Below, one piece after another: positions 20,645 to 58,049 of a stretch of DNA of 58,049 nt. The position numbers and the translations under genes are program-made. The notes under the pieces are model-generated. The model saw only the letters and a list, made by a program, of their open reading frames with translations. It was not told where the DNA came from and searched no databases. The DNA comes from a virus: IMG/VR virus record IMGVR_UViG_3300045988_088962; one strand, given 5' to 3'. How positions within the stretch are numbered: position 1 is the first letter of the stretch; every line of letters starts with the position of its first letter.

Positions 20645-21301
20645 TTAGCGGTGGCTTGTGGTTGGGCTGCCGCTATTTTTATTTGCGTATCTTTCGACAC
20701 GCTCATACCAAGTGGATTTCCCTATGCCAAGCTGCTTGCAGCACTCTTTTACAGTGATTTCGCCTTTTTTCTGTTGTTTTAATAGGCTTTCAAACTGCTG
20801 CTCGTCAACTTGCTTTTCCTGTCTGCCGAAGCTACGGCCTGTTCTGGCTGACACTCGCTTGCCGTCAACAATGGGCATAGCAGCTATACCCTCTGCCTGA
20901 CGCTGCTTGGTTTTCTTGCGCTCCTGTTCAGCTACTGCGCCCAAAACTTCAATAAGGATGTTGTTCACCATTTCCAGCACCCATGTCTGGTCTTGAAAAT
21001 CAATCAGCGTAGTTGGAATGTCAAGGATGCGAACAATCACGCCTTTTTCTTTAAACCACTGAAGTTCTCGCTTCATCTCGTCTTTGTCACGCCCGAATCG
21101 GTCAAATTCCTTAACAATGACCTCATCCCCAGCCTTGACAGTCTCTTTTAATCGTTTATATTGCGGGCGATCAAAGCTACTGCCTGTCATTTTATCACAA
21201 AATACGTTCTCGTCCGGGATGTCAAACCGATCTCGTGCGATTTTAAGCTGTCTTGCAAGACTTTGTTCCTTACTAGACACTCTAGCTAAGAAGTATTGCA
21301 T
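20645..21301 (-). CDS. Small serine recombinase (resolvase/invertase family).
   Basis: It has the N-terminal YFLARVSSKEQS catalytic-Ser motif and a C-terminal HTH (ITVKECCKQLGIGKSTWY). At 218 aa it has the resolvase-type layout. Confidence 0.85.
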   Translation of the reverse strand: MQYFLARVSSKEQSLARQLKIARDRFDIPDENVFCDKMTGSSFDRPQYKRLKETVKAGDEVIVKEFDRFGRDKDEMKRELQWFKEKGVIVRILDIPTTLIDFQDQTWVLEMVNNILIEVLGAVAEQERKKTKQRQAEGIAAMPIVDGKRVSARTGRSFGRQEKQVDEQQFESLLKQQKKGEITVKECCKQLGIGKSTWYERVERYANKNSGSPTTSHR

Positions 21302-46223: not shown

Positions 46224-47318
46224 GTGATAAGAGTGTCCGATATTAAAGGCGGGAACTTGGTTGAAAAGAGCCGACAGCTTGTTTGGGCAAAGTTCACTGA
46301 TTATACAGCAGGAGAGCTTCGGTTGCTTGAAGTGTATCTTAGCCGTATCAATCCGAGAGACCCCGAAACTTCAACGGTTCAGTTTACGTTACAAGAATAT
46401 TGCGAATTTTTGGGGTTGAAAATCAACTCTAGGAATTTGAAAGCGCAGGTCAAGCATTTCATCGACAACTCCGTTGAAGTTCCTAGAGGCGACGGTTCAG
46501 GCTCGTTTGACTTGTATCCCCTGTTCAGTAGAGCAACGGTAAACTTTGAACCTAGTTTGATGAATATTACTGTGTCATTGTGTTGCAATCCGCTTCTGCA
46601 ACCTGTTTTCTTCGACATTGCGGAGCGTGGATATGTCAAGTACCGCTTGCGCTACACAGCGAATATGAAATCGCAGTATAGCATTTTGCTGTATTCAATT
46701 CTCCGAGAGTTCATCGGACGTGGCGTGAGCCAGCCCGAAATTACGTTGGATAGATTAAGGGAACAGCTTGGCGCAAGAGAACCTAGCTATCAAGAGTTCA
46801 AGCATCTTAGGCGGCGTGTCATTGATATTGCGGTAGCTGAAATAAACGAAGTATCAGACCTGTGCGTTGAATATGACAAGGTCATGAGAGGTCGCAATGC
46901 GGTTGCTGTGAAGTTCGATGTAGCTTTCAAGTCTAATGAGCCAGTCATAGACGTGGAAGCTAACGAGGTTGAAAGCGTAGAGCTAAAAGATGTTCCAAAG
47001 AGCCAACGACCTGCCAGAAAGCCCCGCAGTGGCGCATATGAGGATGTGGATTGGGCATCTATTGCGCCGGAGATGTCTAAAAGCCAGTGTATCTTGACTG
47101 CAAAACTGGTGGCAAAGAGATTGCCGGAGAAGTATCCGAACATCAAGCCTAACAAGAAAAAAGAAGCTGTTGTGAACATCATTGAGAATGCATACAGGAT
47201 TCTTGTCAGTGAGCGACTTGATAGGATTGAAAAAGACCCCGGCGCTTATATGTACTCAATTTTGAAAGAAGCAGACATTGACGATTATGCTACGTTTGAC
47301 GATAGCTTCTTGAAGTAG
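46224..47318 (+). CDS. rep: Plasmid replication initiator (Rep_3/RepB-like).
   Basis: LVEKSRQLVWAKFTDYTAGELRLLEVYLSRINPRD...FTLQEYCEFLGL resembles the Rep_3 N-domain, and iterons lie immediately upstream. It has a GTG start (46224 or 46233) after AGGAGG. Confidence 0.75.
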   Translation: MIRVSDIKGGNLVEKSRQLVWAKFTDYTAGELRLLEVYLSRINPRDPETSTVQFTLQEYCEFLGLKINSRNLKAQVKHFIDNSVEVPRGDGSGSFDLYPLFSRATVNFEPSLMNITVSLCCNPLLQPVFFDIAERGYVKYRLRYTANMKSQYSILLYSILREFIGRGVSQPEITLDRLREQLGAREPSYQEFKHLRRRVIDIAVAEINEVSDLCVEYDKVMRGRNAVAVKFDVAFKSNEPVIDVEANEVESVELKDVPKSQRPARKPRSGAYEDVDWASIAPEMSKSQCILTAKLVAKRLPEKYPNIKPNKKKEAVVNIIENAYRILVSERLDRIEKDPGAYMYSILKEADIDDYATFDDSFLK

Positions 47319-47378
47319 TCAGATACAACGCATTATGCAGAATGAGCACAGCGAGCAAATAAAGCAGAAAGGAGCGGT

Positions 47379-47645
47379 ATGAAGAAACAGGAAATTGTGT
47401 GGTATTCCGTTAAAGATGATGGGATGCCAACACAAGAAATCATTGAAAAAGCGAAAGGTCGGTTCTTGTGTTCGGTAAAAACGGCCTATCTAAAAGATGA
47501 ATCTATAACGGCAACAAACACAGTCGCAGCGTTTATTGAAAAGAGCGAGTTTGTAAACACATCGTTTCAGAGGTTGAACATTTCTTCGGACGCTTGCTTT
47601 ATTGCAAGAGTGGAAGCGTGGGCAGAAATGCCGATATACGAATAA
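47379..47645 (+). CDS. DUF551-like small protein.
   Basis: EIVWYSVKDDGMP...VEAWAEMP. Confidence 0.45.
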   Translation: MKKQEIVWYSVKDDGMPTQEIIEKAKGRFLCSVKTAYLKDESITATNTVAAFIEKSEFVNTSFQRLNISSDACFIARVEAWAEMPIYE

Positions 47646-47660
47646 AGAAAGAGTGATAAA

Positions 47661-48437
47661 ATGGCAAAAATCATAGCGGTCGCCAACCAGAAGGGCGGCA
47701 CAGGAAAGACCACCACAAGCACCTGTCTGGCTGGTGCGTTGCAGTTGCTTGGCAAGAAGGTGTTGCTGGTGGACTGCGATGCCCAGTGCAACGCAACGGA
47801 CACATACGGCGCACAGACAGAGGACGTGTGCACTCTGTTCGATGTAATGACCCGGCAAGGTACAGTAGAGGAAGGAATTCAGCACTGCGAAGCCGGTGAC
47901 ATTCTGCCGTCAGACAACGCATTGAAGGACATTGACGAGCAGCTTGTCCGGGACATTGGCAAGAACTTCCGGCTGCGTGAAGCGCTGGAATCCGTGTCTG
48001 CACAGTACGATTACATCGTTCTGGACACTCCCCCGCAGCTCGGTCTTGCGCTTGTAAACGCTCTGATCGCCGCTAACAGCATCATCGTTCCCATTACAGC
48101 AGACCGCTATGCGCTTGCCGGATTGAGCCAACTTTCGCAGACCATCGGCGATGTTCGCAGATACTTCAACCCGACTTTGAAGATTGAAGGTCTGCTTCTG
48201 AACCAGTACAAGAGCCGTGAGAACCTGTCCAAAGAGGTTGTAGAGCAGCTTCCTGTGATTGCAGAAAGCATGGGAACGAGGCTTTTGGGCGTAAAGATTA
48301 GACCGTCTATGGGTGTTCGTAAGGCGCAGGCAGAGCGGCACAGCCTGTTTAGCGGCGACACGGCAAAGAGCACCAGCGCAGAGGACTTTAAGGCTTTGGC
48401 GCAGATGATTGTAGAGGGGAAAGAAAAATGCGACTGA
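47661..48437 (+). CDS. parA: ParA/Soj-family partition ATPase.
   Basis: It has the deviant Walker A AVANQKGGTGKTTT and is 258 aa long. Confidence 0.9.
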   Translation: MAKIIAVANQKGGTGKTTTSTCLAGALQLLGKKVLLVDCDAQCNATDTYGAQTEDVCTLFDVMTRQGTVEEGIQHCEAGDILPSDNALKDIDEQLVRDIGKNFRLREALESVSAQYDYIVLDTPPQLGLALVNALIAANSIIVPITADRYALAGLSQLSQTIGDVRRYFNPTLKIEGLLLNQYKSRENLSKEVVEQLPVIAESMGTRLLGVKIRPSMGVRKAQAERHSLFSGDTAKSTSAEDFKALAQMIVEGKEKCD

Positions 48438-48739
48438 TTGATGCAGAAAATTTAAAAGAAACATACAAAAGCTGGATTTCAGAATATATTCAAAAAGGCA
48501 ACAATTCTTCTAAAGTAGAAGCAACCAGAAAATGTATCATGATGATAGATTATATAAATTCTTATAACGAAGAAGACGCAAGGCCTTCTGCGGAATGGGT
48601 TGTTACGGACGAAGAGAGAGATTGTGCTTGTTGCAGTAGGTGTGGATGGTATATCGACAGACCGAATGCTTCGTTTGCAATTTCAAGATATAAATATTGC
48701 CCAAATTGTGGTGCATGGATGGGAGGAATTGTGAGATGA
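48428..48739 (+). CDS. Hypothetical Zn-ribbon protein within the par operon.
   Basis: CACCSRCG...CPNCG. It overlaps both neighbouring genes. Confidence 0.55.
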   Translation: MRLIDAENLKETYKSWISEYIQKGNNSSKVEATRKCIMMIDYINSYNEEDARPSAEWVVTDEERDCACCSRCGWYIDRPNASFAISRYKYCPNCGAWMGGIVR

Positions 48740-49308
48740 AGTCAACCAGCAAAAAAACATCCGGTTTGTTGGGCGGGTTTGACTTCCAGCCTGTTTTTTC
48801 GGAACAGACATTAAGCCGAAGTGAACCAAAGGAAGAAGAAGTAAGCCAAACAAAGCCGAATAATGCCGAACAAGCACCGATTAAGCCTAGTGGAGCCACA
48901 GACAGCCATGCACGGCCGAGTGAAGCAGAATTAAGCAGTATTAAGCCGAAGCGAGTCAAAGACAGCGAAAGACAGCCAAATGATGCCGTATTAGGCGAAG
49001 GTAAGCCGAAGAAGCTGAAACAGGCGAAAGAAACGAAGCGGCTGATTGAACAGGGCAATATTCCCGGCGCACTAGCCGAAGCTGGCTTGACAAAGAAAAA
49101 AATCCCGATGCCGGAATCGCATCAGGGCGTTGCAAGCGGTGACGGCAAGCGTTCTAAGCGCATTACCATCCTTATGAGCGAGGAAGAACGCAAGTACATC
49201 AACCGTGAAGCCAGACGGCACGGAATGACGATTGGACAGTTCGTGTACGCTCTGGCTGCTGCTGCGGCAGACGGGAAGATTGAACTGGAGGATTTCTTGG
49301 AGGATTGA
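48736..49308 (+). CDS. RHH (ParG/CopG-like) candidate centromere-binding protein with a repeat-containing N-terminal tail.
   Basis: The C-terminus KRITILMSEEERKYINREARRHGMTIGQFVYALAAAA is RHH-like. GGGAGG lies before the ATG at 48736, and there is an alternative internal ATG at 49108. Confidence 0.6.
   Translation: MKSTSKKTSGLLGGFDFQPVFSEQTLSRSEPKEEEVSQTKPNNAEQAPIKPSGATDSHARPSEAELSSIKPKRVKDSERQPNDAVLGEGKPKKLKQAKETKRLIEQGNIPGALAEAGLTKKKIPMPESHQGVASGDGKRSKRITILMSEEERKYINREARRHGMTIGQFVYALAAAAADGKIELEDFLED
48811..49020 (+). repeat. Twenty-one tandem degenerate 10-bp units (nnaAGCCgaa), a candidate partition centromere embedded in the coding sequence.
   Basis: Read directly: ttaagccgaa gtgaaccaaa ggaagaagaa gtaagccaaa caaagccgaa taatgccgaa ... 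gtaagccgaa gaagctgaaa. Confidence 0.7.
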
Positions 49309-49882: not shown

Positions 49883-50290
49883 ATGCGCACATATAAGCCA
49901 CACAAGCGCAGGAGCAAAGAGGAACAAGCCAAAATAAATGCAGAGGCAACAAAACGTAAAGCAAAACTGGCTGAAAAGTACAATACTGGCACTCAATATT
50001 ACAAGGGTATTCCTGTTGAGCTGATTGTAAGAGAGGACTACGGTTGCTACAAAGCAAAGCGTTTCAAAATCAATAATAGCAATCAGAATGTGTGGATTCC
50101 AAACTGCTATCTCGAAGATGACGGAACAATCAAGGCGAATATGAACATTGACTTTGTATTCCGTAAGTCTGTAAACCAGTTAAACAAAGCTGGAATCACG
50201 CAAGCAATTATCGGCATCAAACGTAAAATGCCGGAAGCAGATGTGCCAAATCTCAAAAGCACCATGCAGAAAATCGGAGATAAGATTTAA
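49883..50290 (+). CDS. Hypothetical protein.
   Basis: 135 aa with a GGGTGGAG RBS. Confidence 0.6.
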   Translation: MRTYKPHKRRSKEEQAKINAEATKRKAKLAEKYNTGTQYYKGIPVELIVREDYGCYKAKRFKINNSNQNVWIPNCYLEDDGTIKANMNIDFVFRKSVNQLNKAGITQAIIGIKRKMPEADVPNLKSTMQKIGDKI

Positions 50291-50302
50291 GGAGAGATTG
50301 CT

Positions 50303-50560
50303 ATGACTTACGGAGAAATGAGCAACTATATCACTCATATTAGTGACAATGACTTGGTTGCGTTGTGCAAGAGCGTTTACGAGTTCAAGAATGGAAATGG
50401 TGTGTTGGAGCCCACTTCGACACTCAAAATTCTTGCAGAAAACCTACAGTTTTCTGATGTGAGAGCGTTGGAATATGCCATTACAGAAGAAGCGCATAAA
50501 CGGTATGGACAGATTGTATTGCTTCTCATGAAAGATGCCCCGTCGCATTATTTGAAATGA
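50303..50560 (+). CDS. Hypothetical protein.
   Basis: 85 aa with an AAGGAGAG RBS. Confidence 0.6.
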   Translation: MTYGEMSNYITHISDNDLVALCKSVYEFKNGNGVLEPTSTLKILAENLQFSDVRALEYAITEEAHKRYGQIVLLLMKDAPSHYLK

Positions 50561-50581
50561 TGAGTTTTAAGGAGAATCATA

Positions 50582-50749
50582 ATGGGTAAGTATGTGAAGC
50601 GAGAAAATGTCTTAAAAAAGCTAAAAGATGTATCAAAATTGGCAGACGGAAAATCTGGCAAAGCGGTGATTGCGTTACTTAGAGCATCTTTGGAGAACAT
50701 TCCTTACATTGTGGTTGAAGAAGGAATTAAGCAAAACGATAAAAACTAA
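50582..50749 (+). CDS. Small hypothetical protein (55 aa).
   Basis: AAGGAG RBS. It is below the ORF-track cutoff. Confidence 0.45.
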   Translation: MGKYVKRENVLKKLKDVSKLADGKSGKAVIALLRASLENIPYIVVEEGIKQNDKN

Positions 50750-50816
50750 GTTCTAAAGTTAAAATAGAAGAACCCCTGTGTAGCCACAACGACCGCACAG
50801 GGGAGAAAGGAATAAT

Positions 50817-51086
50817 ATGAGCGAAAAAGCAAGAATGTACATAAAATGTTGCCTAGAGAGAAACAAAAGAATTATATATCACGATTTATTGTTTCTTTTG
50901 TTTTCTGCGTTGATTGAGGGATATTTTATTCGTCAATTCATATTTGAAAATCATTCGTTTGTTTATATTGTGCTTATTATGCTGGATGCTTTTCTCGCAT
51001 TCAATGTAGCAAAAGAGCTATCCGAATTTGAAAAAGAATCTGAAATCTTAAAAAATATATTAGAAAAAGGTGATGAAAAGTGCTAA
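50817..51086 (+). CDS. Two-TM membrane protein (AT-rich cassette).
   Basis: LLFLLFSALIEGYFI and FVYIVLIMLDAFLAF are the TM segments. AAAGGAATAAT lies before the ATG. Confidence 0.55.
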   Translation: MSEKARMYIKCCLERNKRIIYHDLLFLLFSALIEGYFIRQFIFENHSFVYIVLIMLDAFLAFNVAKELSEFEKESEILKNILEKGDEKC

Positions 51087-51186
51087 TATATGTTTTTGTA
51101 GGAATATGTTGTATAGGGATGTTTATTTGCGTGAGTTCTTTTTTGCAGAGCCATTTGACAACGAGGGCGGAAAAGAATATGCAATA

Positions 51187-51543
51187 ATGGCTGTTGCGGG
51201 GATTGTTTTAACAATACTTGGCGTTGTTCTGATGATAGCAAACGTAGAATACAATTCGTCCCATCCTATCGTATCGAATTATGATTTACAAGAAATCGAA
51301 CCGGGAATATATGCCTATACATCGACTGTCGTTTCAAATATTCCAGCGGAAAATTATGAAATGTGTACAGTTTTAATAAATGGGCAGTACATTACAATTA
51401 AAGGAACCGTAAAAATAGCGAAATCGGATGGAAGCACTCCTAAAATAAAATGGGAAAACAGGCGCATAGTCAACGGAGATACTGTTACGATTTATGCTGA
51501 TATAAACCAAATAAAAAATAATGGCGTAAGAGCCATATCTTAA
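51187..51543 (+). CDS. Signal-anchored beta-rich protein (AT-rich cassette). The ORF is open from 51070.
   Basis: MAVAGIVLTILGVVLMIANV is followed by a soluble domain. The start is uncertain. Confidence 0.5.
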   Translation: MAVAGIVLTILGVVLMIANVEYNSSHPIVSNYDLQEIEPGIYAYTSTVVSNIPAENYEMCTVLINGQYITIKGTVKIAKSDGSTPKIKWENRRIVNGDTVTIYADINQIKNNGVRAIS

Positions 51544-51553
51544 CGAGGGCTTT

Positions 51554-51736
51554 ATGGAAGAGTATAAAGATAGTATTGCGATTATTGAAGAAAACGAAAT
51601 CGAAAAACGAAAGTCTGAATATGGAAATCGCTTTTGTAAAATAACTAAAGAAATGATAGAAAGTTTAGTAAACGAGAAAATTCTAATGATAAATAACGGA
51701 GAATATTGTACTTTTTTAAAATATTTCCAAGATTAA
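51554..51736 (+). CDS. Small hypothetical protein (AT-rich cassette).
   Basis: 60 aa, immediately followed by a terminator. Confidence 0.45.
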   Translation: MEEYKDSIAIIEENEIEKRKSEYGNRFCKITKEMIESLVNEKILMINNGEYCTFLKYFQD

Positions 51737-51741
51737 ACAAA

Positions 51742-51781
51742 CCCCTGTGCGGTCATTACAACTGCACAGGGGTTTTCTGTT
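51742..51781. terminator. Bidirectional terminator between convergent operons.
   Basis: CCCCTGTGC-13 nt-GCACAGGGG followed by TTTTCTGTTTT, with an A-rich tract upstream. Confidence 0.75.
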
Positions 51782-52420
51782 TTACTTATCAGCAATGCAA
51801 TCCCAGTAGAGATACGCCTTACCATCTACGGCATCTGCGTCCTCAAGAAACGCCTTTGCCATGTCAGCGTAGAAGCCCGGAGTGTCAACAGACTGGCGCT
51901 TTGCGACCTGACAATAATCCGAGTACATCATGTTCATGACAGCCCAGAAATCGTTCGGGTCGCAGGTGATGTTGCGCTGTTTGGCAACATCCTGTGTCTG
52001 CTCCAGCGTCCAATGACAACCCTTCGTGCCGTCAGCGTTCACCATGCTGTCGCACCATTCCTCCGCTTCATCGTGGGTGAGGTGCTGGCGTGGCATCTTG
52101 ATGGAGCGGCTGTCCGCACCACCATGCTCATAATGCCCAGACCGCTTGTCCCAGTCTTCGCTCTGCGAGAAGCCAATCTGCGGCATCTTGCGCCCATACT
52201 CTACGTCAGGGTAGCGGGGGATAGGGTAGGGGTCAATGTAGCGATTCTCCTCCTGCGGATAGTAAGGATAACGGTCGTTGCCGTCTTCCAGCTTACGCAG
52301 ACGGCGTTCAAACTCACGCTCCCTGCGATCGCGCTCTTCCTCAAGGCGGTCACGTTCCGGCTCACGGTCTTTGTCGTGGTCACGGAGCATCATCATGCGG
52401 CGAAAATTAGTCTTGCCCAT
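51782..52420 (-). CDS. Hypothetical protein with an R/E/D-rich N-terminal half (orphan operon gene 6).
   Basis: GAGGAGG RBS. It contains DRLEEERDRREREFERRLRKLED and a C-terminal Cys/Trp-containing domain. Confidence 0.65.
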   Translation of the reverse strand: MGKTNFRRMMMLRDHDKDREPERDRLEEERDRREREFERRLRKLEDGNDRYPYYPQEENRYIDPYPIPRYPDVEYGRKMPQIGFSQSEDWDKRSGHYEHGGADSRSIKMPRQHLTHDEAEEWCDSMVNADGTKGCHWTLEQTQDVAKQRNITCDPNDFWAVMNMMYSDYCQVAKRQSVDTPGFYADMAKAFLEDADAVDGKAYLYWDCIADK

Positions 52421-52433
52421 AATCTATACCTCC

Positions 52434-52805
52434 TCAAGAAATGGACGCAGGCGCACCGGCGTGGGAACGGCAGAAGCAGCCAAGATACTTGAACGTGCCG
52501 GTGCCGGTAGCGGACGTTGCCACACGAGTAGCATATCGGGTGCGGGTGTGAATGCTCTCGGCCGTCGCCTGAGCGCAGTTGCAGTCGGTCAGAGGGTATG
52601 CGGTCGTGCCTGCACCGATGGTAATGACCACAGGGGCGTTGATGGTGGTCGTGTCCGGCAAGCTCTGAGCAACCACGATACAATACTTTTCTCCGTTCTG
52701 GTATGCGCCAGCAGGGATGTTGATGGTCAGAGTATCGTCGGCAAACGTGACTGCCTGACTGATGACCAAGTGCGGGCAGAGTTTGCAGCTTGTTTTGCAA
52801 GCCAT
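52434..52805 (-). CDS. Cys-rich hypothetical protein (orphan operon gene 5).
   Basis: TAGGAGG RBS. The N-terminus is MACKTSCKLCPH, and DCNC and GCFC motifs are present. Confidence 0.65.
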   Translation of the reverse strand: MACKTSCKLCPHLVISQAVTFADDTLTINIPAGAYQNGEKYCIVVAQSLPDTTTINAPVVITIGAGTTAYPLTDCNCAQATAESIHTRTRYATRVATSATGTGTFKYLGCFCRSHAGAPASIS

Positions 52806-52890
52806 AGTATTTTCCTCCTAAAAAATCAGGGGCAGAGGTGTCTTACCCCTGCCCCGATGGTTCACCCGGTGTTATCGGGGAGTGTGTAGG

Positions 52891-53763
52891 TTAGCAGCAG
52901 CCGCAGCAGTTCACGCCAACGTTGGGGTTTGCCACCTGATAAGCGGGAATCGGACGAGGATTGACCCGGTTCAGGATGGTATCGGTCTGCTGGGACATCA
53001 CGGTGGTCAGAAGCGCATTCTGACGATCCTGAGAAGCGGCGAACTTCAGGCTCTGGTTCTCAGCGGTCAGAGTGGCAATCTTATCCTGCGTGAAGTAGTC
53101 CATCATGCTGCGGAAGTTGGCGTTGCAGTTGTCCACGATGGCGCGGGCGTTGTCTGCGATGGCCTGCCGGGTAGCGCAGTCCTGCTGTGCAATGGTGTAC
53201 TTCAGGTCGCCGATGAGCTGCTTGTTCTCGCAGCAGAAAGATGCAAGCTGCGTGGCAAGTGCGGTCTGACCAGCCTGACGTGCGTTGCCCTCCTGCATGA
53301 TGGCGAGGCTGATGGCGTTGTCGCCGTTGGACACGCTGCGTTCCAGACCGTTCACAAGCTGTGCGTTCTGGTAGCCGAGCTGACAGATCGCCTGATTAGT
53401 ACCAGCAAAGCCGCCCGCAACGGCAGCGTTGAGGGTGTTCATCTGTGCAAGCTGGTCATAGCCCAGAGAGCAGATACCGCTTTGGATGCCAGCCAGAGAG
53501 CGAGAGGTGTCCTGCTGGTAGAAGCCCTCAGACAAAGCCGCACGAGTATCTGCGCCGCCCTGACCGGTTGCACCGGTGCCCACCAGATAGGGGATGTAGC
53601 TGTTCATGCCGTTGTCACCACCGTTCCGACCGTAGCCGTTTGTGCCCCAGCCGAAGATGATAGCGAGAATGATAACCGCCCACAGACCCTCGTTTCCGAA
53701 GAATCCGCCGTTGTTATTACCGCCGTCCTGCCCAGCCAGATAGCCAGTTGCAAAATCGTCCAT
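52891..53763 (-). CDS. Gly/Asn-rich single-TM protein with a C-terminal CCGCC (orphan operon gene 4).
   Basis: AAGGAG RBS. It has GGNNNGGFFGNEGLWAVIILAIIFGWG, a duplicated ICxLGYxxxQxxN motif, and ends NVGVNCCGCC. Confidence 0.7.
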   Translation of the reverse strand: MDDFATGYLAGQDGGNNNGGFFGNEGLWAVIILAIIFGWGTNGYGRNGGDNGMNSYIPYLVGTGATGQGGADTRAALSEGFYQQDTSRSLAGIQSGICSLGYDQLAQMNTLNAAVAGGFAGTNQAICQLGYQNAQLVNGLERSVSNGDNAISLAIMQEGNARQAGQTALATQLASFCCENKQLIGDLKYTIAQQDCATRQAIADNARAIVDNCNANFRSMMDYFTQDKIATLTAENQSLKFAASQDRQNALLTTVMSQQTDTILNRVNPRPIPAYQVANPNVGVNCCGCC

Positions 53764-53885
53764 AACAAAACTCCTTTCAGTTTTGCGTTATGCTATCCCA
53801 CCGCCGTGTGCGGTGGGCGAAGCCAAACAAAAGCGGTTTTTGTCAAGTCCGCAAAACTGAGAAGCGTTTCGCTTAGAGGGATGCG

Positions 53886-54035
53886 TTATTCAGCATTATC
53901 TTCATTTGGATTTCGAGCAAGCCAAAAGATGATGGCGAGAAGCATCAGCCCAGATTTGTCATTTCCGTCAAAGATATTTTTTTCGAAGTTTTTTTCAATA
54001 TTTTCTTCAGGGGAAACAGACTTTGATTCTTCCAT
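53886..54035 (-). CDS. 49-aa single-TM peptide (orphan operon gene 3).
   Basis: Sequence MEESKSVSPEENIEKNFEKNIFDGNDKSGLMLLAIIFWLARNPNEDNAE. It is below the ORF-track cutoff. Confidence 0.4.
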   Translation of the reverse strand: MEESKSVSPEENIEKNFEKNIFDGNDKSGLMLLAIIFWLARNPNEDNAE

Positions 54036-54046
54036 ACAAACCACCG

Positions 54047-54298
54047 TTATTTGGGCAGTGTCAGGTTCAGGACGCTTGCGAGCTGGTTCAGGTCAATGCC
54101 ACGCTCTTTGGCGAGGTTCTGTGCCATTGTCCTGAGCTGTGCTTCGTTTTTGCCCTGAATCAAGTTCAAGCCCTGCATGATGGGGGTATTCTGCCCGCTT
54201 AACTGCTGGATAAGCCCCATCGGGTTTTGCCCGGCGCGAGCCAGATTTGCAAGCTGCATGATTGGGCTGTGAGTAATCACATCAAACGGAGAGGACAT
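54047..54298 (-). CDS. Hypothetical protein (orphan operon gene 2).
   Basis: 83 aa with an AAAGGAGAATAACA RBS. Confidence 0.6.
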   Translation of the reverse strand: MSSPFDVITHSPIMQLANLARAGQNPMGLIQQLSGQNTPIMQGLNLIQGKNEAQLRTMAQNLAKERGIDLNQLASVLNLTLPK

Positions 54299-54300
54299 TG

Positions 54301-54819
54301 TTATTCTCCTTTCTTTGCTGTGGCAGTAGGCTTAGAAAAGCTCTTCTGCCACTTTTCCAGTTCATCCAGCCGGTGCACGAGGGCATTGTACTGCTCAATA
54401 GGCACATACTGCTGTGTCGGTGCAGCGGTCTGCTGTGCCTGTTGTGCTTGCATCTGCCGCCATGCTTCCGGACTGTAGAACTCCTGCACATAGGATTCGC
54501 AGGTGTCCGGGTTGAGACGTTTGCAGTAGATCACGCCGCTGCGCAGGTCGGGGCAGTAGGTAGGTCTGCCGTACAGGTCAGACGGTATCGCCAAAAACTC
54601 TTCCCTGCTGGAAACAGGTCTGCCCAGCAGCCAACCGCCATCCTGTGCCGACTGCTGAACAGGCTGCTGCCCATTCATCGGCTGCGGACGCTGCGGTTGT
54701 GCCTGTTGCATCTGCGTGTTCGGCAGAGGAGTTGCAAGCCCGACCGTGCCCATGCCGCCGTAAGGGTTGACAGGCTGCTGCGGAACGTAGGGCGTTCCGG
54801 ATGCCGGATAATAGCTCAT
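54301..54819 (-). CDS. Gln/Pro-rich hypothetical protein (orphan operon gene 1).
   Basis: AAGGAGGG lies before the ATG at 54819. The N-terminal 60 aa are P/Q-rich. Confidence 0.65.
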   Translation of the reverse strand: MSYYPASGTPYVPQQPVNPYGGMGTVGLATPLPNTQMQQAQPQRPQPMNGQQPVQQSAQDGGWLLGRPVSSREEFLAIPSDLYGRPTYCPDLRSGVIYCKRLNPDTCESYVQEFYSPEAWRQMQAQQAQQTAAPTQQYVPIEQYNALVHRLDELEKWQKSFSKPTATAKKGE

Positions 54820-54891
54820 AATACATCCCTCCTTGTGCATCTAGTGTACCGCATCAGCAAAAAGTGAAAGACAACGAAGGCACAACGAAGG

Positions 54892-54936
54892 ACAAAAAAG
54901 AAAAGCGCCCACACGGAAAAATCCGCATGAGCGCTT
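54892..54936 (-). terminator. Strong rho-independent terminator (T2) just upstream of the orphan operon.
   Basis: It has a 15-bp stem. Three C:A/A:C mismatches on the plus strand become G:U pairs only in the minus-strand RNA. UUCUUUUUU follows. Confidence 0.7.
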
Positions 54937-55020
54937 AACTGTAAGGATACACACGTTGGAGTGCAATGCTAAGATATCACATCATCCAATATATGGCAAT
55001 GCTTTCGACAAAACTGGTAA

Positions 55021-55059
55021 GAATAAAACAAAATCCACCAGCCTAAAAGCTGATGGATT
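55021..55059 (-). terminator. Rho-independent terminator (T1) within the leader / sRNA region.
   Basis: AAUCCAUCAGC-uuuuag-GCUGGUGGAUU has its single odd pair as G:U only on the minus strand. UUUGUUUUAUUC follows. Confidence 0.65.
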
Positions 55060-55263
55060 ATAAGCGAGCGAGTAATCGCCCTGCCACCGAAGCGGCAAAA
55101 TTGCGTCTCCCGCATGGTACGCACTGTAAGTAGGCGGGTGGGAGACTGTTCAGCGCCGAATCTGGCGACTGCTTTTTTAATTCTCCGTTGAGCACGGAGT
55201 TGGCTCTTGGATGCCCCGGCCTAATGCGAATCGTTGAGAGGCCGGTCGGGTTTCCTTGGGTAT

Positions 55264-55272
55264 ATTATACCA
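55264..55272 (-). promoter_or_regulatory. Extended -10 promoter element (TGGTATAAT) on the minus strand.
   Basis: It was read on the reverse complement. It lies just downstream of the 55286-55321 terminator. The -35 element is weak. Confidence 0.4.
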
Positions 55273-55285
55273 CAAATCGTGTAAA

Positions 55286-55321
55286 AAGAAAAGCGGCAGA
55301 CCCGAAAGCCTGCCGCTTTTG
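55286..55321. terminator. Bidirectional terminator after the HTH/sigma-like ORF.
   Basis: AAAAGCGGCAG-10 nt-CTGCCGCTTTT. Confidence 0.7.
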
Positions 55322-55369
55322 GATAACCAGAGCAAAAACTCCGACTAATCCCTAGACAAGATTAGTATA

Positions 55370-55759
55370 TCACGCATTCAGCATTTTATCAATAATTTTT
55401 AGCCTATTGCTGATTGATGTCCGACAATACGGCACACGCGCTGCAATATCAACTTGGCATAGCTGGTCAACGTACCGCAACCGGGCGATTTTCCGGTCAT
55501 ACCTCCCAAGCGGCGCACGTTTTATCACAGCTTTTATCTGTTCTGCATTAAGCCCTTGCAACGCTGGCGGAAAGACTATGCGAGCCGCCGCCACAGGCAG
55601 CACCGAGCCAGAAGGGCTGCGGCAGCTGTCCGGCGTTGCGCACCATATTGTTAAGCACGGCGAAATGGTGATGCTCACGACATTTGTTTCGAGAGCATAC
55701 CATTTTCGTGACGCGCCGAAATTGCTCTTGTGCGGCGTACATTTTGTTGACGCCAACAA
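55370..55759 (-). CDS. Sigma-70 region-4 / ArpU-like HTH ORF. The start is undefined and it may be fused to 55548..55823 by a +1 shift.
   Basis: Its C-terminal 65 aa are LNAEQIKAVIKRAPLGRYDRKIARLRYVDQLCQVDIAARVPYCRTSISNRLKIIDKML. No in-frame start has an RBS. Confidence 0.4.
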   Translation of the reverse strand: MLASTKCTPHKSNFGASRKWYALETNVVSITISPCLTIWCATPDSCRSPSGSVLPVAAARIVFPPALQGLNAEQIKAVIKRAPLGRYDRKIARLRYVDQLCQVDIAARVPYCRTSISNRLKIIDKMLNA

Positions 55760-55823
55760 AATGGTGACGTTTTGTCACCGTTTCGCCATAACCGGCAAAA
55801 TGGTCGTATGTAGTGCTTGCCAT
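55548..55823 (-). CDS. His-rich ORF with a strong RBS that overlaps the sigma-like ORF in another frame.
   Basis: AAGGAGGATATC lies before the ATG at 55823. The peptide has three HHF..N.MV repeats that coincide with DNA inverted repeats. Confidence 0.4.
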   Translation of the reverse strand: MASTTYDHFAGYGETVTKRHHFVGVNKMYAAQEQFRRVTKMVCSRNKCREHHHFAVLNNMVRNAGQLPQPFWLGAACGGGSHSLSASVARA

Positions 55824-55833
55824 GATATCCTCC

Positions 55834-56049
55834 TTATTGCGTGATTTCCTCCGCGTCCTCCGCGTCCAGAGCGTCGTAGTACGCCTGCGCAAGGGCTTCC
55901 ACCTCTGCAATGTCGTCCTCCGTCAGCAGTCCGTTGTCGTAGTGCATATATGCTTTATCCAGCCAGAACGCAACATCGCGTCCTGCTGCAATTTCCCGCT
56001 TGATGCTGCGCAGCGTCAGGTCATGCCTGGCTCTACTTTTAATTGCCAT
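55834..56049 (-). CDS. Small acidic protein downstream of the collagen-like fibre gene.
   Basis: 71 aa with an AAGGAGG RBS. Confidence 0.6.
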   Translation of the reverse strand: MAIKSRARHDLTLRSIKREIAAGRDVAFWLDKAYMHYDNGLLTEDDIAEVEALAQAYYDALDAEDAEEITQ

Positions 56050-56063
56050 ATGTATGTACCTCC

Positions 56064-57920
56064 TTATGTGTTGGTCATTGATGCCACAGCATCCTCAAGG
56101 TCCGTAATTCGTTTGATGGGGTCTGCTCTGCCGGTGACGGTCGCACTATCAGCATCGGTCATCAAGGTGTTCACGCCGCTCAGAGAAGAGATAGGCTGTG
56201 CGCCGGTTGCGGTGAAAGGCACAGGCTCTGCCAGCTTGTAAGCGATTTGCACCGGGGTTCCGGCGGCGTACTGGGCGGCAAGGTAGGATTTTAAGTCGTC
56301 AACGGTATCAAAACCGCACGTGTGTAATCCAACGTTAACGTTTCTATTTTCAGCGTATAGGGCGTTAGTGTTTGCTGTTTTTGTGCCGCTCCAATGGCTT
56401 GCCACTACCGTGCTAGTAGGCACGGATACTGGCAGCACTAAGTTGATTTCAAATAAATCAAACCTATCTCGCTTGTATATCCTCTCCGTTCCCGTCAGCG
56501 TCAGCAAATCCCACGTCTCCTGCCCATCTCCCGTCACTGCATCCACCGTGCCGCCGTAGATGGTGCGGGGCAGGGTCAGGGTGGAGGTTTGGCCGGTGTA
56601 AGGGGCGTAGGCGGTAGGGGCGGTGGTGCCAACGATGAGCATTGGATTTGTTCCAATAAACCCTTCTGTGCTTGAGTGAAGTAGCAAGGAACGTGCTTTT
56701 TCTGGAATTTTCGTTGGGGCGTTATAGAATAGTGCTGTGTCAGACAAATATTTATTGTCACCAGTTAAAAATGTTGCACGTGCATTAAGATTGATACTGT
56801 AAAACGTAGTAAAAATCAGATACTGTCCCGGCTCTATTTTGATTGGCTGCAAAGCTCTTTGTTGCCGTCCTATTCCGTCAACTTTTTCCCCATTTTCATA
56901 AATACCATTTTCAATGTTTTCAGGTGACGAGTTCAGTAGGTTCTCCCCGCACCTTGTCACCATCACGCTGTTCCTGCCCTTAATTGGGCGAACATTGTCA
57001 GGTGATGGGTCACCGCTGCCATCCTGCACAGGTTCCCAACTCACCTTACAGCCCAACGGATATCCCGCCACAGGATAGCACACCATTGGGTTGCCGGTCT
57101 CAGAGATGGGCGGGCAGAGCATGTCCACAATGTGCTTGCTACTCCATGGGGCAGAGTCGGTCACGGTGGTGTCATCAATTTGCGGGGCATCTTTGCCGTC
57201 TGCACCTGCTGGGCCGGGGTCGCCTTTAGGCCCTTGCTCACCACGAGGACCAGTTTCACCCTGTGGGCCAGTGGCACCCGTATCGCCTGTGGGGCCTTGA
57301 GGGCCTTGCTCACCCTGCGGGCCAACCGGGCCGATGGGACCAGTGTCGCCCTTGTCGCCTTTCTCGCCTTTGAAGTTACCAGCGGCAATGCCGTCTTTCA
57401 GCTCCTGTAAGCTGTCAGCGGCTTCCTGAGCGCTCTGGGCTGCATTGCCCGCACTGGTGGCTGCTTCACTGGCGGCAGTCTGTGCATCGGTCTTGGCCTG
57501 CTCTGCGGCGGTGGCATCGGTGTGAACGGCCCCCACCAGCTCCTGCCAGGCAGGTGTGCCGGGCTCCGGCATGCTGCCGTCATCCGTGCCGGAGTTGGCG
57601 GCCACACGGTAGCGCAGATCTGCACTTGTCACGGTGCGGGTGCCATCGCTGCCCTCAAAGGTGATACAGCCATTGCCGGGCTGTGCGGTCACGCTGGCAG
57701 GCACGGCCACATAGCCGTCCACTACCAGCGAGGACGCCGGGTCCTTGCCGTCCGGGACGTGCCAGAAAGCCCGGATGGTCAGGCCTTCCCACTCACCGGT
57801 TGCATCGATGTGCAGGCGGTACACGCCCCGGTTTTTGGTGTAGCCAAAGCGCACCAGCTGCTCATAGCCCGGCACTTTGACGACGCCATTGGATGCGAGA
57901 GATACGCTTAGCTCGATCAT
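56064..57920 (-). CDS. Collagen-repeat tail fibre protein (second fibre gene).
   Basis: Its G-X-Y run is [58 protein letters not shown]. It has a phage-fibre-like N-domain. The start lies 4 nt after the holin stop. Confidence 0.8.
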
Positions 57921-57923
57921 GCT

Positions 57924-58049
57924 TTACTCCTTGTTGATGGTAGGCTTCTTTTCTGCCAGTGCCTTCTTCATCAGGCTTACGGCCTTTTCAATCACCGCGT
58001 CAAGCACTTCATCCGTGATGATAGGCTTCAGCCATGCAGGGCAGGCCGC
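57924..58049 (-). CDS. Holin 3' part (the same gene as 1..299, continued across the circular junction).
   Basis: The frame continues ...SLMKKALAEKKPTINKE then TAA at 57924-57926. Confidence 0.7.
   Translation of the reverse strand, partial: AACPAWLKPIITDEVLDAVIEKAVSLMKKALAEKKPTINKE
57961..58049. repeat. Terminal direct repeat, right copy (identical to 1-89).
   Basis: Exact 89-nt identity with the first 89 bases of the window. Confidence 0.95.

Follow-up and report, generated by a model that had tools for sequence, protein, structure and literature searches.

What does a compact block of six small genes do for a gut phage when none of its products is recognisable as a standard phage function? 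The question is raised by the IMG/VR virus record IMGVR_UViG_3300045988_088962, a circular phage genome whose 58,049-nt sequence we call the window, and by the six minus-strand genes at positions 51782-54819, which we call the cassette and number g1 to g6 in the direction of transcription. A first-pass annotation had described these genes as an orphan operon outside the head, tail and lysis order and had proposed that they form a membrane-anchored, Cys-rich assembly. We found that five of them, g1-g2-g4-g5-g6, are a conserved, selected and separately insulated module tied to the lysis region. Most likely, the cassette builds a tightly regulated, membrane-anchored coiled-coil assembly. The role that we favour for it, tentatively, is that of a gated, membrane-active late module acting in release or lysis control.

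Gene content and conservation of the cassette

All six open reading frames (ORFs) that had been called are present:

54301-54819, minus strand: g1, 172 aa counted from the ATG preceded by a ribosome-binding site (RBS)
54047-54298, minus strand: g2, 83 aa
53886-54044, minus strand: g3, ORF; 53886-54035 from the ATG at 54035, 49 aa
52891-53763, minus strand: g4, 290 aa
52434-52805, minus strand: g5, 123 aa
51782-52420, minus strand: g6, 212 aa

The motifs reported for their products were likewise all found: the hydrophobic segment GLWAVIILAIIFGWG, two ICxLGY repeats and NCCGCC in g4; MACKTSCKLC, DCNC and GCFC in g5; and an R/E/D-rich N-terminal half in g6. Strong AGGAGG-type RBSs had been claimed for every gene; five have an AAGGAG/AGGAGG-type site, but g3 has only GGTGG. 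Pairwise comparison with three relatives gave ratios of nonsynonymous to synonymous substitution rates (dN/dS) of 0.02-0.18 for g1, g2, g4, g5 and g6 (g1, 0.03-0.05; g2, 0.03-0.10), and these are therefore real genes under strong purifying selection. The 49-aa g3, listed earlier as a single-transmembrane member of the operon, is an AT-rich optional insert of variable sequence in the g2-g4 spacer. Of 37 close relatives whose cassette is of the same type (type A, defined below), about 15 have it; it is missing in L007 and L087, and its KD19 value of 1.11 is below the transmembrane threshold. The related record L001 has a different, 55-aa ORF that starts with MDDF, as g4 does. The hydrophobic stretches of g3 and of this ORF mimic the N-terminal anchor of g4.

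The description of the genes as orphans of no recognisable family has to be given up. More than 6,400 homologues of g4 were found at E ≤ 0.001, and the family counts thousands of proteins from the gut metagenomes of humans and animals. There are 1,670 homologues of g5, in 369 clusters at 50% identity, and 227 of g6, which carry a precomputed PF25223 label and none of which has a functional name. By hidden Markov model (HMM) score, g4 belongs to PHROG 16490 (E = 6.3e-37), g1 to PHROG 21718 (2e-9), both families with no function assigned, and residues 109-202 of g6 to DUF7841 (PF25223; 91.7 bits against a gathering threshold of 25.2 bits, E = 4.9e-26). Every component of the cassette is functionally dark. 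Scans of Pfam, NCBIfam, PADLOC and PHROGs with the six proteins and their type-B analogues returned families of no assigned function only. PADLOC-DB held no match to the six better than E = 0.026, and PDB sequence and profile searches with g1, g4, g5, g6 and the type-B protein g5' gave nothing significant. The earlier statement that no standard phage function can be recognised was thus borne out: none of the proteins had a homologue of characterised function in Pfam, NCBIfam, PADLOC, PHROGs, PDB or Foldseek. Literature searches on DUF7841, crAss annotations and an archaeal-virus compendium returned nothing relevant and no mention of DUF7841, and we found no description in the literature of the DUF7841 and PHROG families as one co-inherited module. 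The claim of an undescribed system stands, strengthened by the breadth, allelic structure and RNA leader reported below.

Co-occurrence of the genes had been proposed as a test of the operon, and the gene order proved to be kept across 86 Clostridia loci, 80 of them representing one genome per species, which we surveyed with iterated HMMs. We detected g1 in 73 of the 86 loci, 5' of g4 in all, g2 in 42, g5 in 28 and g6 in 19. Most other loci carry g5' (PHROG 20016 by HMM score, 52 loci) and an R/G/Y/S/D-rich protein, g6' (60 loci). Because hhalign detected no homology between g5 and the type-B g5' or between g6' and DUF7841, we regard g5' and g6' as positional analogues only. Homologues of g4 at about 40% identity keep the order of a protein of ~165 aa, one of ~80 aa, g4, one of ~130 aa and a DUF7841 protein. 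The host labels are Oscillospiraceae, Acutalibacteraceae, Lachnospiraceae and Christensenellaceae, and isolates with the locus include Anaerotruncus colihominis (DSM 17241), Lachnospira intestinalis and Enterocloster hominis. A search of PLSDB plasmids gave one match, a Vescimonas megaplasmid, so the cassette is not a plasmid trait.

The cassette is also carried throughout an abundant gut phage lineage. At least 80 near-identical IMG/VR relatives (L095-L174) have an endolysin at least 82% identical to that of the window, and 66 of them contain sufficient downstream DNA to be judged. The cassette is present in 64 of the 66, as type A (g1-g2-g4-g5-g6) in 40 and as type B (g1-g2'-g4-g5'-g6') in 24. 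The two types swap between otherwise near-identical phages, and homology between them breaks directly past a helix-turn-helix (HTH) regulator gene, near 55100-55467, inside the regulatory intergenic region. Presence in 64 of 66 relatives as two swappable alleles is the usual pattern for functional late modules, not for morons. Two allelic types in an isogenic background, together with deletion variants, provide natural material for study. Immediately 5' of g1, the type-B loci L031 and L114 encode a 126-aa protein with Cys/His motifs (PHROG 3754).

The view that the block lies outside the head, tail and lysis order did not survive the circular map. The window has an identical 89 nt at its first and last ends, and L001 spans the junction; the genome is circular. 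On this map, the minus-strand late operon runs from terminase, portal, tape measure and tail proteins to a GH25 endolysin, and the cassette occupies the slot directly after the lysis region (endolysin, a 129-aa protein, holin, fibre, a 71-aa ORF, the HTH gene, cassette). In all annotated Clostridia contexts the cassette lies 3' of lysis genes. The lysis gene ahead of it is GH25 in the window and L087, CHAP in L088, C39_2-like in L090 and a holin in L006. In integrase-bearing relatives, the cassette is followed by the integrase.

Homologues of g4 cross the host divide between Firmicutes, Bacteroidota and archaea. With our own HMMs, we found Crassvirales homologues of g4 (7e-34 and 1e-22) and of DUF7841 (5e-31). 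In crAss cr125_1, the order is holin, a LysB-like protein, DUF7841, a g4-like protein, a 142-aa protein and a 186-aa protein. A charged low-complexity arm is C-terminal to DUF7841 in crAss and N-terminal to it in g6; this inverted order indicates that the pairing itself is conserved. No homology was detectable by hhalign between g5 and the crAss proteins of 136-180 aa or between g1 and those of 168-186 aa. The cultured, plaque-forming Bacteroides uniformis phage C3_41T2LP encodes a g4-like protein, a 180-aa protein, a 177-aa coiled-coil protein, a 77-aa protein and a DUF7841 protein. It offers, with the A. colihominis DSM 17241 locus, which lies at 1.669-1.687 Mb of NZ_CP102255.1, a cultured handle on the system. 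Viruses of Methanomassiliicoccales have g4 homologues between the tail and diversity-generating retroelement (DGR) genes and the integrase, and the homologue from the archaeal virus vir215 carries the phrog_16490 label in its own record. Other annotators have labelled crAss homologues of g4 "spike protein/glycoprotein", and their labels for g4 homologues also include "outer capsid protein/viral fiber".

The crAss and Bacteroides cassettes are flanked by small proteins that resemble HExxH metallopeptidases (L091, 4886-5233 and 7466-7861; L094, 9770-10234), and one of these is annotated as "PolyVal metallopeptidase".

The core protein g4, its partners and the control of their expression

The core protein g4 begins with an acidic, Gly/Asn-rich tail (mean 0.5 K/R versus 3.8 D/E), followed by a hydrophobic core of 13-15 residues that is Trp-flanked and Gly-bracketed (KD19 1.70). 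Judged by its sequence, this predicted anchor resembles a viral fusion peptide more closely than it does a classical 20-residue transmembrane helix. A Gly-rich linker leads into about 180 residues predicted to be helical, a stalk rich in A/Q/N/T/S/G in which 13% of residues are charged and in which the number of LGY repeats varies among homologues. AlphaFold2 places helices at residues 27-37, 87-144 and 152-267. A CCC triplet is near-invariant, and C196 and the terminal cysteines are also conserved. The C-terminal part consists of a Pro-rich PxPxPAYxVPNP segment and a Cys/Gly tail ending in CCGCC. As the first-pass annotation had it, the best structural reading is still an assembly anchored in the membrane and stapled by cysteines, which may form disulfides or bind metal.

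Natural in-frame chimeras of g4 occur. In P0053, P0065 and P0070, the N-terminal domain of the 618-aa collagen-repeat fibre is joined to the C-terminal half of g4, and in P0068 g1 is joined to that half. The contigs with the fibre chimeras measure 53-56 kb, and that with the g1 chimera measures 12 kb. All junctions differ and lie at short Q/A/T-rich microhomologies, and the chimeras look like natural deletion variants, in a sample biased by the fact that only in-frame fusions could be detected.

The partner g1 starts with a disordered P/Q/Y-rich arm, continues as a small globular domain and ends in a coiled coil. The g2 protein is helical and Met/Gln-rich, with a GQNP motif; the g4 homologues from crAss, Bacteroides and archaeal viruses have a related motif, KGVDPxLxAML, in their N-terminal region. 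Of the cassette proteins, g5 is the most conserved (65-75% identity where g4 has only ~40%). It contains eight cysteines, in an N-terminal CxxxCxxC, a CNC and a C-terminal CxC/CC, and C7, C10, C42 and C77 are invariant. Its AlphaFold2 model suggests a β-sandwich with a weak likeness to fibre-tip domains: in BFVD it matched its own family first and then tail-fibre and collagen C-terminal domains (E 6e-4 to 2e-2, TM score ~0.5), as well as one crAss DUF7841 protein (TM score ~0.5). A Foldseek search of the PDB gave nothing significant, the best match being a phage baseplate/tail-fibre chain (E 0.18, TM score 0.46). The g6 protein combines a disordered N-terminal half rich in R/E/D/Y with the C-terminal DUF7841 domain. 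We found no hydrophobic or signal segment in g1, g2, g5 or g6, so four of the five conserved proteins are without an export signal.

Expression of the cassette may be controlled by the following features:

55551-55823: conserved 91-aa ORF starting MASTTY, overlapping the HTH ORF in another frame
55370-55561, minus strand: small HTH regulator, 63-aa core, PHROG 36 "transcriptional regulator", E = 3e-4
54903-55320, minus strand: regulatory intergenic region with three terminator-like hairpins and a sigma-70-like promoter match
55320-55289, 55059-55032 and 54936-54903, minus strand: the upstream terminator-like hairpins, from a consensus scan
54999-54971, minus strand: the sigma-70-like promoter match
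54871-54891, minus strand: tandem 10-nt direct repeat, CCTTCGTTGT twice at a spacing of 11, between the last terminator and the g1 RBS
53764-53885, minus strand: structured RNA leader of g4, the 122-nt g2-g4 spacer
52829-52855, minus strand: terminator-like hairpin between g4 and g5, from a consensus scan
51739-51775, both strands: bidirectional terminator closing the cassette, on which low-GC plus-strand genes converge

The HTH and 91-aa ORFs are kept in all relatives, and the HTH ORF lies beside both cassette types in more than 60 of them; the overlapping pair at 55370-55823 may represent two separate genes or a single regulator with a frameshift. L090 has a 76-aa Sigma70_r4 protein at the HTH position, whose similarity to the HTH protein of the window was not significant by BLASTP. 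A terminator-rich spacer of ~500 nt separates these ORFs from the cassette. The block had been described as insulated, with two terminators upstream and a bidirectional one downstream. The insulation and the bidirectional terminator are confirmed, but there are three terminators upstream rather than two, and another follows g4. This last hairpin (52829-52855) is a possible attenuator or mRNA-stability element. The tandem repeat at 54871-54891 is a candidate operator, and L003, L014, L056 and L082 have analogous repeats at the same place, often resembling a -35 element (TTGAYA).

Each of two promoter-like sites, 55392-55364 and 54999-54971, has a terminator-like hairpin about 40-70 nt downstream, and such pairs could give short leader or small RNA transcripts or act as attenuators. 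A weak, sub-threshold Rfam match to ctRNA_pGA1 covers 54890-54957 (E 0.18).

The leader of g4 is closed by a helix, P1, formed by UCAGUUUU and AAAACUGA, and the 3' strand of this helix adjoins the g4 Shine-Dalgarno sequence. Within it are a hairpin, P2 (GCGG...CCGC), with the conserved loop UCUUGAnAAAAA, and then a GC-rich hairpin, P3. Nucleotide diversity in the leader is 0.041, the level of first and second codon positions, compared with 0.16-0.22 at third positions, and the leader is therefore under purifying selection. Compensatory changes were found in P1 and P2 across the divergent type-A loci L011, L013, L014, L021 and L040, and the fold has a minimum free energy of -50.7 kcal/mol (z = -5.06). 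An Rfam scan of 53764-53885 gave no match with E ≤ 1, and over 51000-58049 there were two sub-threshold matches only, both outside the leader. The element is a possible new cis-regulatory model. At the same place, type-B loci have a hairpin and then an ATAAAT-like box (37 of 71 loci, versus 19.5 ± 3.4 in shuffled sequences, for a motif that was defined post hoc).

What the assembly may do

We favour a role in release or lysis control because of the fusion-peptide- or spanin-like architecture of g4, the position of the cassette and the leader that abuts the Shine-Dalgarno sequence. In such a scheme, g4 would sit in the cytoplasmic membrane by its short hydrophobic segment, its stalk stapled by the Cys triplet and ending in the Pro/Cys-rich tip, where g5 would dock as a Cys-rich β-sandwich knob. 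The proteins g1, g2 and g6 would assemble on g4 from the cytoplasm, or after the holin opens the membrane. Expression would pass two gates: the small HTH regulator, terminator hairpins and operator-like repeats ahead of g1, and then the structured leader, which may pair with sequence abutting the g4 RBS. By analogy, this double gating would be the kind of control applied to membrane-toxic lysis proteins, and the optional anchor mimic g3 is reminiscent of holin/antiholin pairs. The assembly would come into play as the lytic cycle ends, acting on the cell membrane or envelope either in an accessory membrane-disrupting or release step, in the manner of a spanin or fusion protein, or in the timing of lysis. 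Hosts of the viruses with g4 include monoderms, diderms and archaea, which points to the cytoplasmic membrane as the one target that they share. More broadly, and with greater doubt, the cassette may be an undescribed viral membrane machinery common to gut viruses of Firmicutes, Bacteroidota and methanogenic archaea, in which anchored, Cys-stapled g4, a knob and disordered partners, gated by a new RNA leader, either carry out a release step that does not depend on the host envelope or prevent entry at the cytoplasmic membrane. A membrane action in lysis or exclusion would extend the holin-endolysin(-spanin) paradigm by a new component and could explain how gut phages are released under osmotically protective conditions.

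Several known systems resemble the cassette in part. Like spanins (lambda Rz/Rz1 and the T1 gp11 u-spanin) and class I fusion proteins, g4 has a predicted N-terminal membrane anchor, a long predicted helical stalk with conserved cysteines of the intermolecular type and a Pro-rich distal segment. With spanins it also shares its place beside holin and endolysin, and the "spike protein/glycoprotein" labels of its crAss homologues belong with these likenesses. It differs in that it shows no sequence or profile homology to them, has no lipoprotein partner and occurs mostly in monoderm Clostridia, which offer no outer membrane for fusion; it is also about twice the size of Rz and has four co-conserved soluble partners. 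The T4 holin T with its antiholins RI and RIII is likewise built from one membrane segment and a large Cys-containing domain, with small extra partners that g3 as an optional anchor mimic recalls, and the leader structure adjoining the g4 translation start is like the sdi of lambda S. However, there is no homology to the T4 proteins, the phage has a separate canonical holin (Phage_holin_6_1-like), and g4 has a fibrous stalk rather than a globular domain and a hydrophobic segment of only 13-15 residues.

A number of observations weigh against the release or lysis-control role. We found no homology or experimental link to any lysis protein, and a canonical holin-endolysin pair is already present in the phage. 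No ORF with a lipobox was found in any frame on the cassette strand of 51700-54900, hence no o-spanin partner, and Firmicutes have no outer membrane, which makes a spanin function unnecessary. The terminators between the lysis genes and g1 point to transcription apart from the late operon. Two of the 66 relatives are deletion variants without the cassette, which is thus dispensable at least for persistence, and in C3_41T2LP the set sits among recombination genes, away from the lysis genes. The flanks of the g4 anchor, an acidic N-terminal tail and a neutral C-terminal side, give no clear orientation. The structural models are of low confidence: g5 has a predicted local distance difference test score (pLDDT) of 57 and a predicted TM score (pTM) of 0.54, and the g4 monomer model is poor (pLDDT 53, pTM 0.24), as expected if g4 is an oligomeric coiled coil.

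Some specific identities were tried and rejected. For a two-component spanin, two defining features fail: there is no lipobox partner, and hosts are mostly monoderm, as judged from the strong AGGAGG RBSs and from homologous loci in genomes of Anaerotruncus, Lachnospira, Enterocloster and Oscillospiraceae MAGs (an outer membrane exists only for the crAss and Bacteroides homologues). The architecture of g4 is similar to that of an i-spanin, with an anchor of only 13-15 residues and no homology. A holin identity for g4 is discounted by its length of 290 aa, where holins have fewer than about 150, its low-charge stalk, the separate 111-aa holin and the lack of any holin Pfam match in the cassette. 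The N-terminus of g4 was considered as a double-glycine leader of a bacteriocin, an idea prompted by a C39_2-like peptidase near the L090 cassette and by the type-B Cys/His protein; it was dropped because the residue at -4 is non-hydrophobic and because of the 290-aa length of g4.

A stalk with a knob also invites comparison with phage fibres that carry a separate tip. Here the cassette would encode an accessory fibre on the head or tail of the virion, with a trimeric g4 coiled-coil stalk, g5 as distal knob and g1, g2 and g6 as assembly or attachment factors, a new split stalk/knob design if true. We consider this unlikely. The matches of the g5 model to tail-fibre and collagen C-terminal domains in BFVD, its best PDB match and the extracellular-fibre-like composition of the low-charge g4 stalk all fit a fibre, as do partners that lack signal peptides like virion proteins, the collagen-repeat fibre gene that likewise lies past the lysis genes, the fibre-g4 chimeras, the near-universal and allelic presence in the lineage and the "viral fiber" labels. 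However, a strongly hydrophobic, membrane-type N-terminal segment is unusual in a soluble fibre, a leader abutting the Shine-Dalgarno sequence is atypical of structural genes, and terminators and an own regulator part the cassette from those genes; in C3_41T2LP, too, the set lies outside the structural module. Receptor-binding tips are usually the most variable part, whereas g5 is the most conserved. The fold matches rest on a model with a pLDDT of 57, and the chimeras carry the detection bias noted above. That a prophage might use the cassette for lysogenic conversion or superinfection exclusion, building in the membrane or on the surface a structure that keeps out incoming phage DNA or changes the host envelope, seems to us similarly improbable. 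The slot between lysis genes and integrase is the classic moron position, the block has its own promoter-like site, regulator and flanking terminators, the swapping of types A and B in near-identical phages suggests conflict-driven diversification, and an archaeal provirus homologue of g4 adjoins surface-repeat and multi-transmembrane proteins before an integrase. The first-pass annotation had offered lysogenic conversion as a function; as a general one it is weakened by the homologous sets in Crassvirales and a plaque-forming Bacteroides phage, by the missing export signals (from their sequences, four of the five conserved proteins would not be exportable in a living cell) and by alleles that are near-universal rather than sporadic. 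PADLOC gave no match, and five co-conserved proteins are far above the number in known superinfection exclusion systems.

The acidic tail of g4 favours an N-out, C-in orientation, which would place the stalk in the cytoplasm, where by sequence all partners belong. The cassette would then form a membrane-tethered scaffold or condensate that organises late events, with metal-binding cysteines (Zn or Fe-S) and prion-like arms on g1 and g6. CxxxCxxC, CCC and CxCxC are typical of metal sites in anaerobes, and the charged arm stays paired with DUF7841 despite the inverted crAss order. We nevertheless give this little credence: cytoplasmic coiled coils do not resemble the low-charge N/Q/A-rich stalk, at 45-75 residues the N-terminal regions of the crAss and archaeal proteins are long for signal-less translocation, and no scaffold or metalloprotein shows homology. 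From their composition, the proteins could also be phage-encoded components of the spore coat or exosporium, with a role in remodelling the spore surface: g1, g4, g5 and g6 are variously Cys-rich, Tyr/Arg/Asp-rich, Pro/Gln-rich and Gly/Asn-rich, a collagen-like protein is a neighbour, many hosts are spore-forming Clostridia, and signal peptides are missing, as in coat proteins made in the mother cell. This is very improbable and largely refuted by host distribution, since homologues of g4 and DUF7841 are also found where the host forms no spores, in Bacteroides phages, crAss phages and archaeal viruses. Moreover, Pfam and NCBIfam gave no match to coat or exosporium proteins (CotY/ExsY, CdeC/CdeM, BclA), and no sporulation-type promoter is evident. 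A likeness of g5' to the BclA/C1q knob was confirmed by no search, and the g5' profile did not match the BclA C-terminal domain in the PDB.

The lysis region and neighbouring genes

The genes between the tail operon and the HTH regulator are as follows:

669-1499, minus-strand late operon: GH25 endolysin, PF01183, 2e-26
283-672, after the GH25 endolysin: 129-aa protein with a hydrophobic stretch at its N-terminus
1-299 and 57924-57960, spanning the origin: 111-aa holin, whose L087 orthologue has a weak Phage_holin_6_1 match
after the holin on the circular map: 618-aa collagen-repeat fibre protein
between the collagen fibre and the overlapping 91-aa/HTH ORFs: 71-aa ORF

The holin gene was missed by the ORF listing of the linear window because it is split over the start and end. 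Read from sequence, 46224-49308 contains Rep-, ParA- and ParB-like genes and 20645-21301 a probable serine recombinase, a gene set that is phage-plasmid-like. Close relatives that share the late genes (L087, L088 and L114) instead have a tyrosine integrase, placed after the cassette.

On the other side of the cassette, small plus-strand ORFs of low GC content (0.37) at 50000-51736, one of which encodes a 157-aa protein with a hydrophobic segment, converge on the cassette terminator. This block looks like a separately acquired accessory island. A reverse transcriptase gene of the DGR type (L088, 4179-5309; L093, 4152-5186) lies 5' of the cassette, past the tail genes, in a Clostridia phage, and the same arrangement is found in the Methanomassiliicoccales virus vir215.

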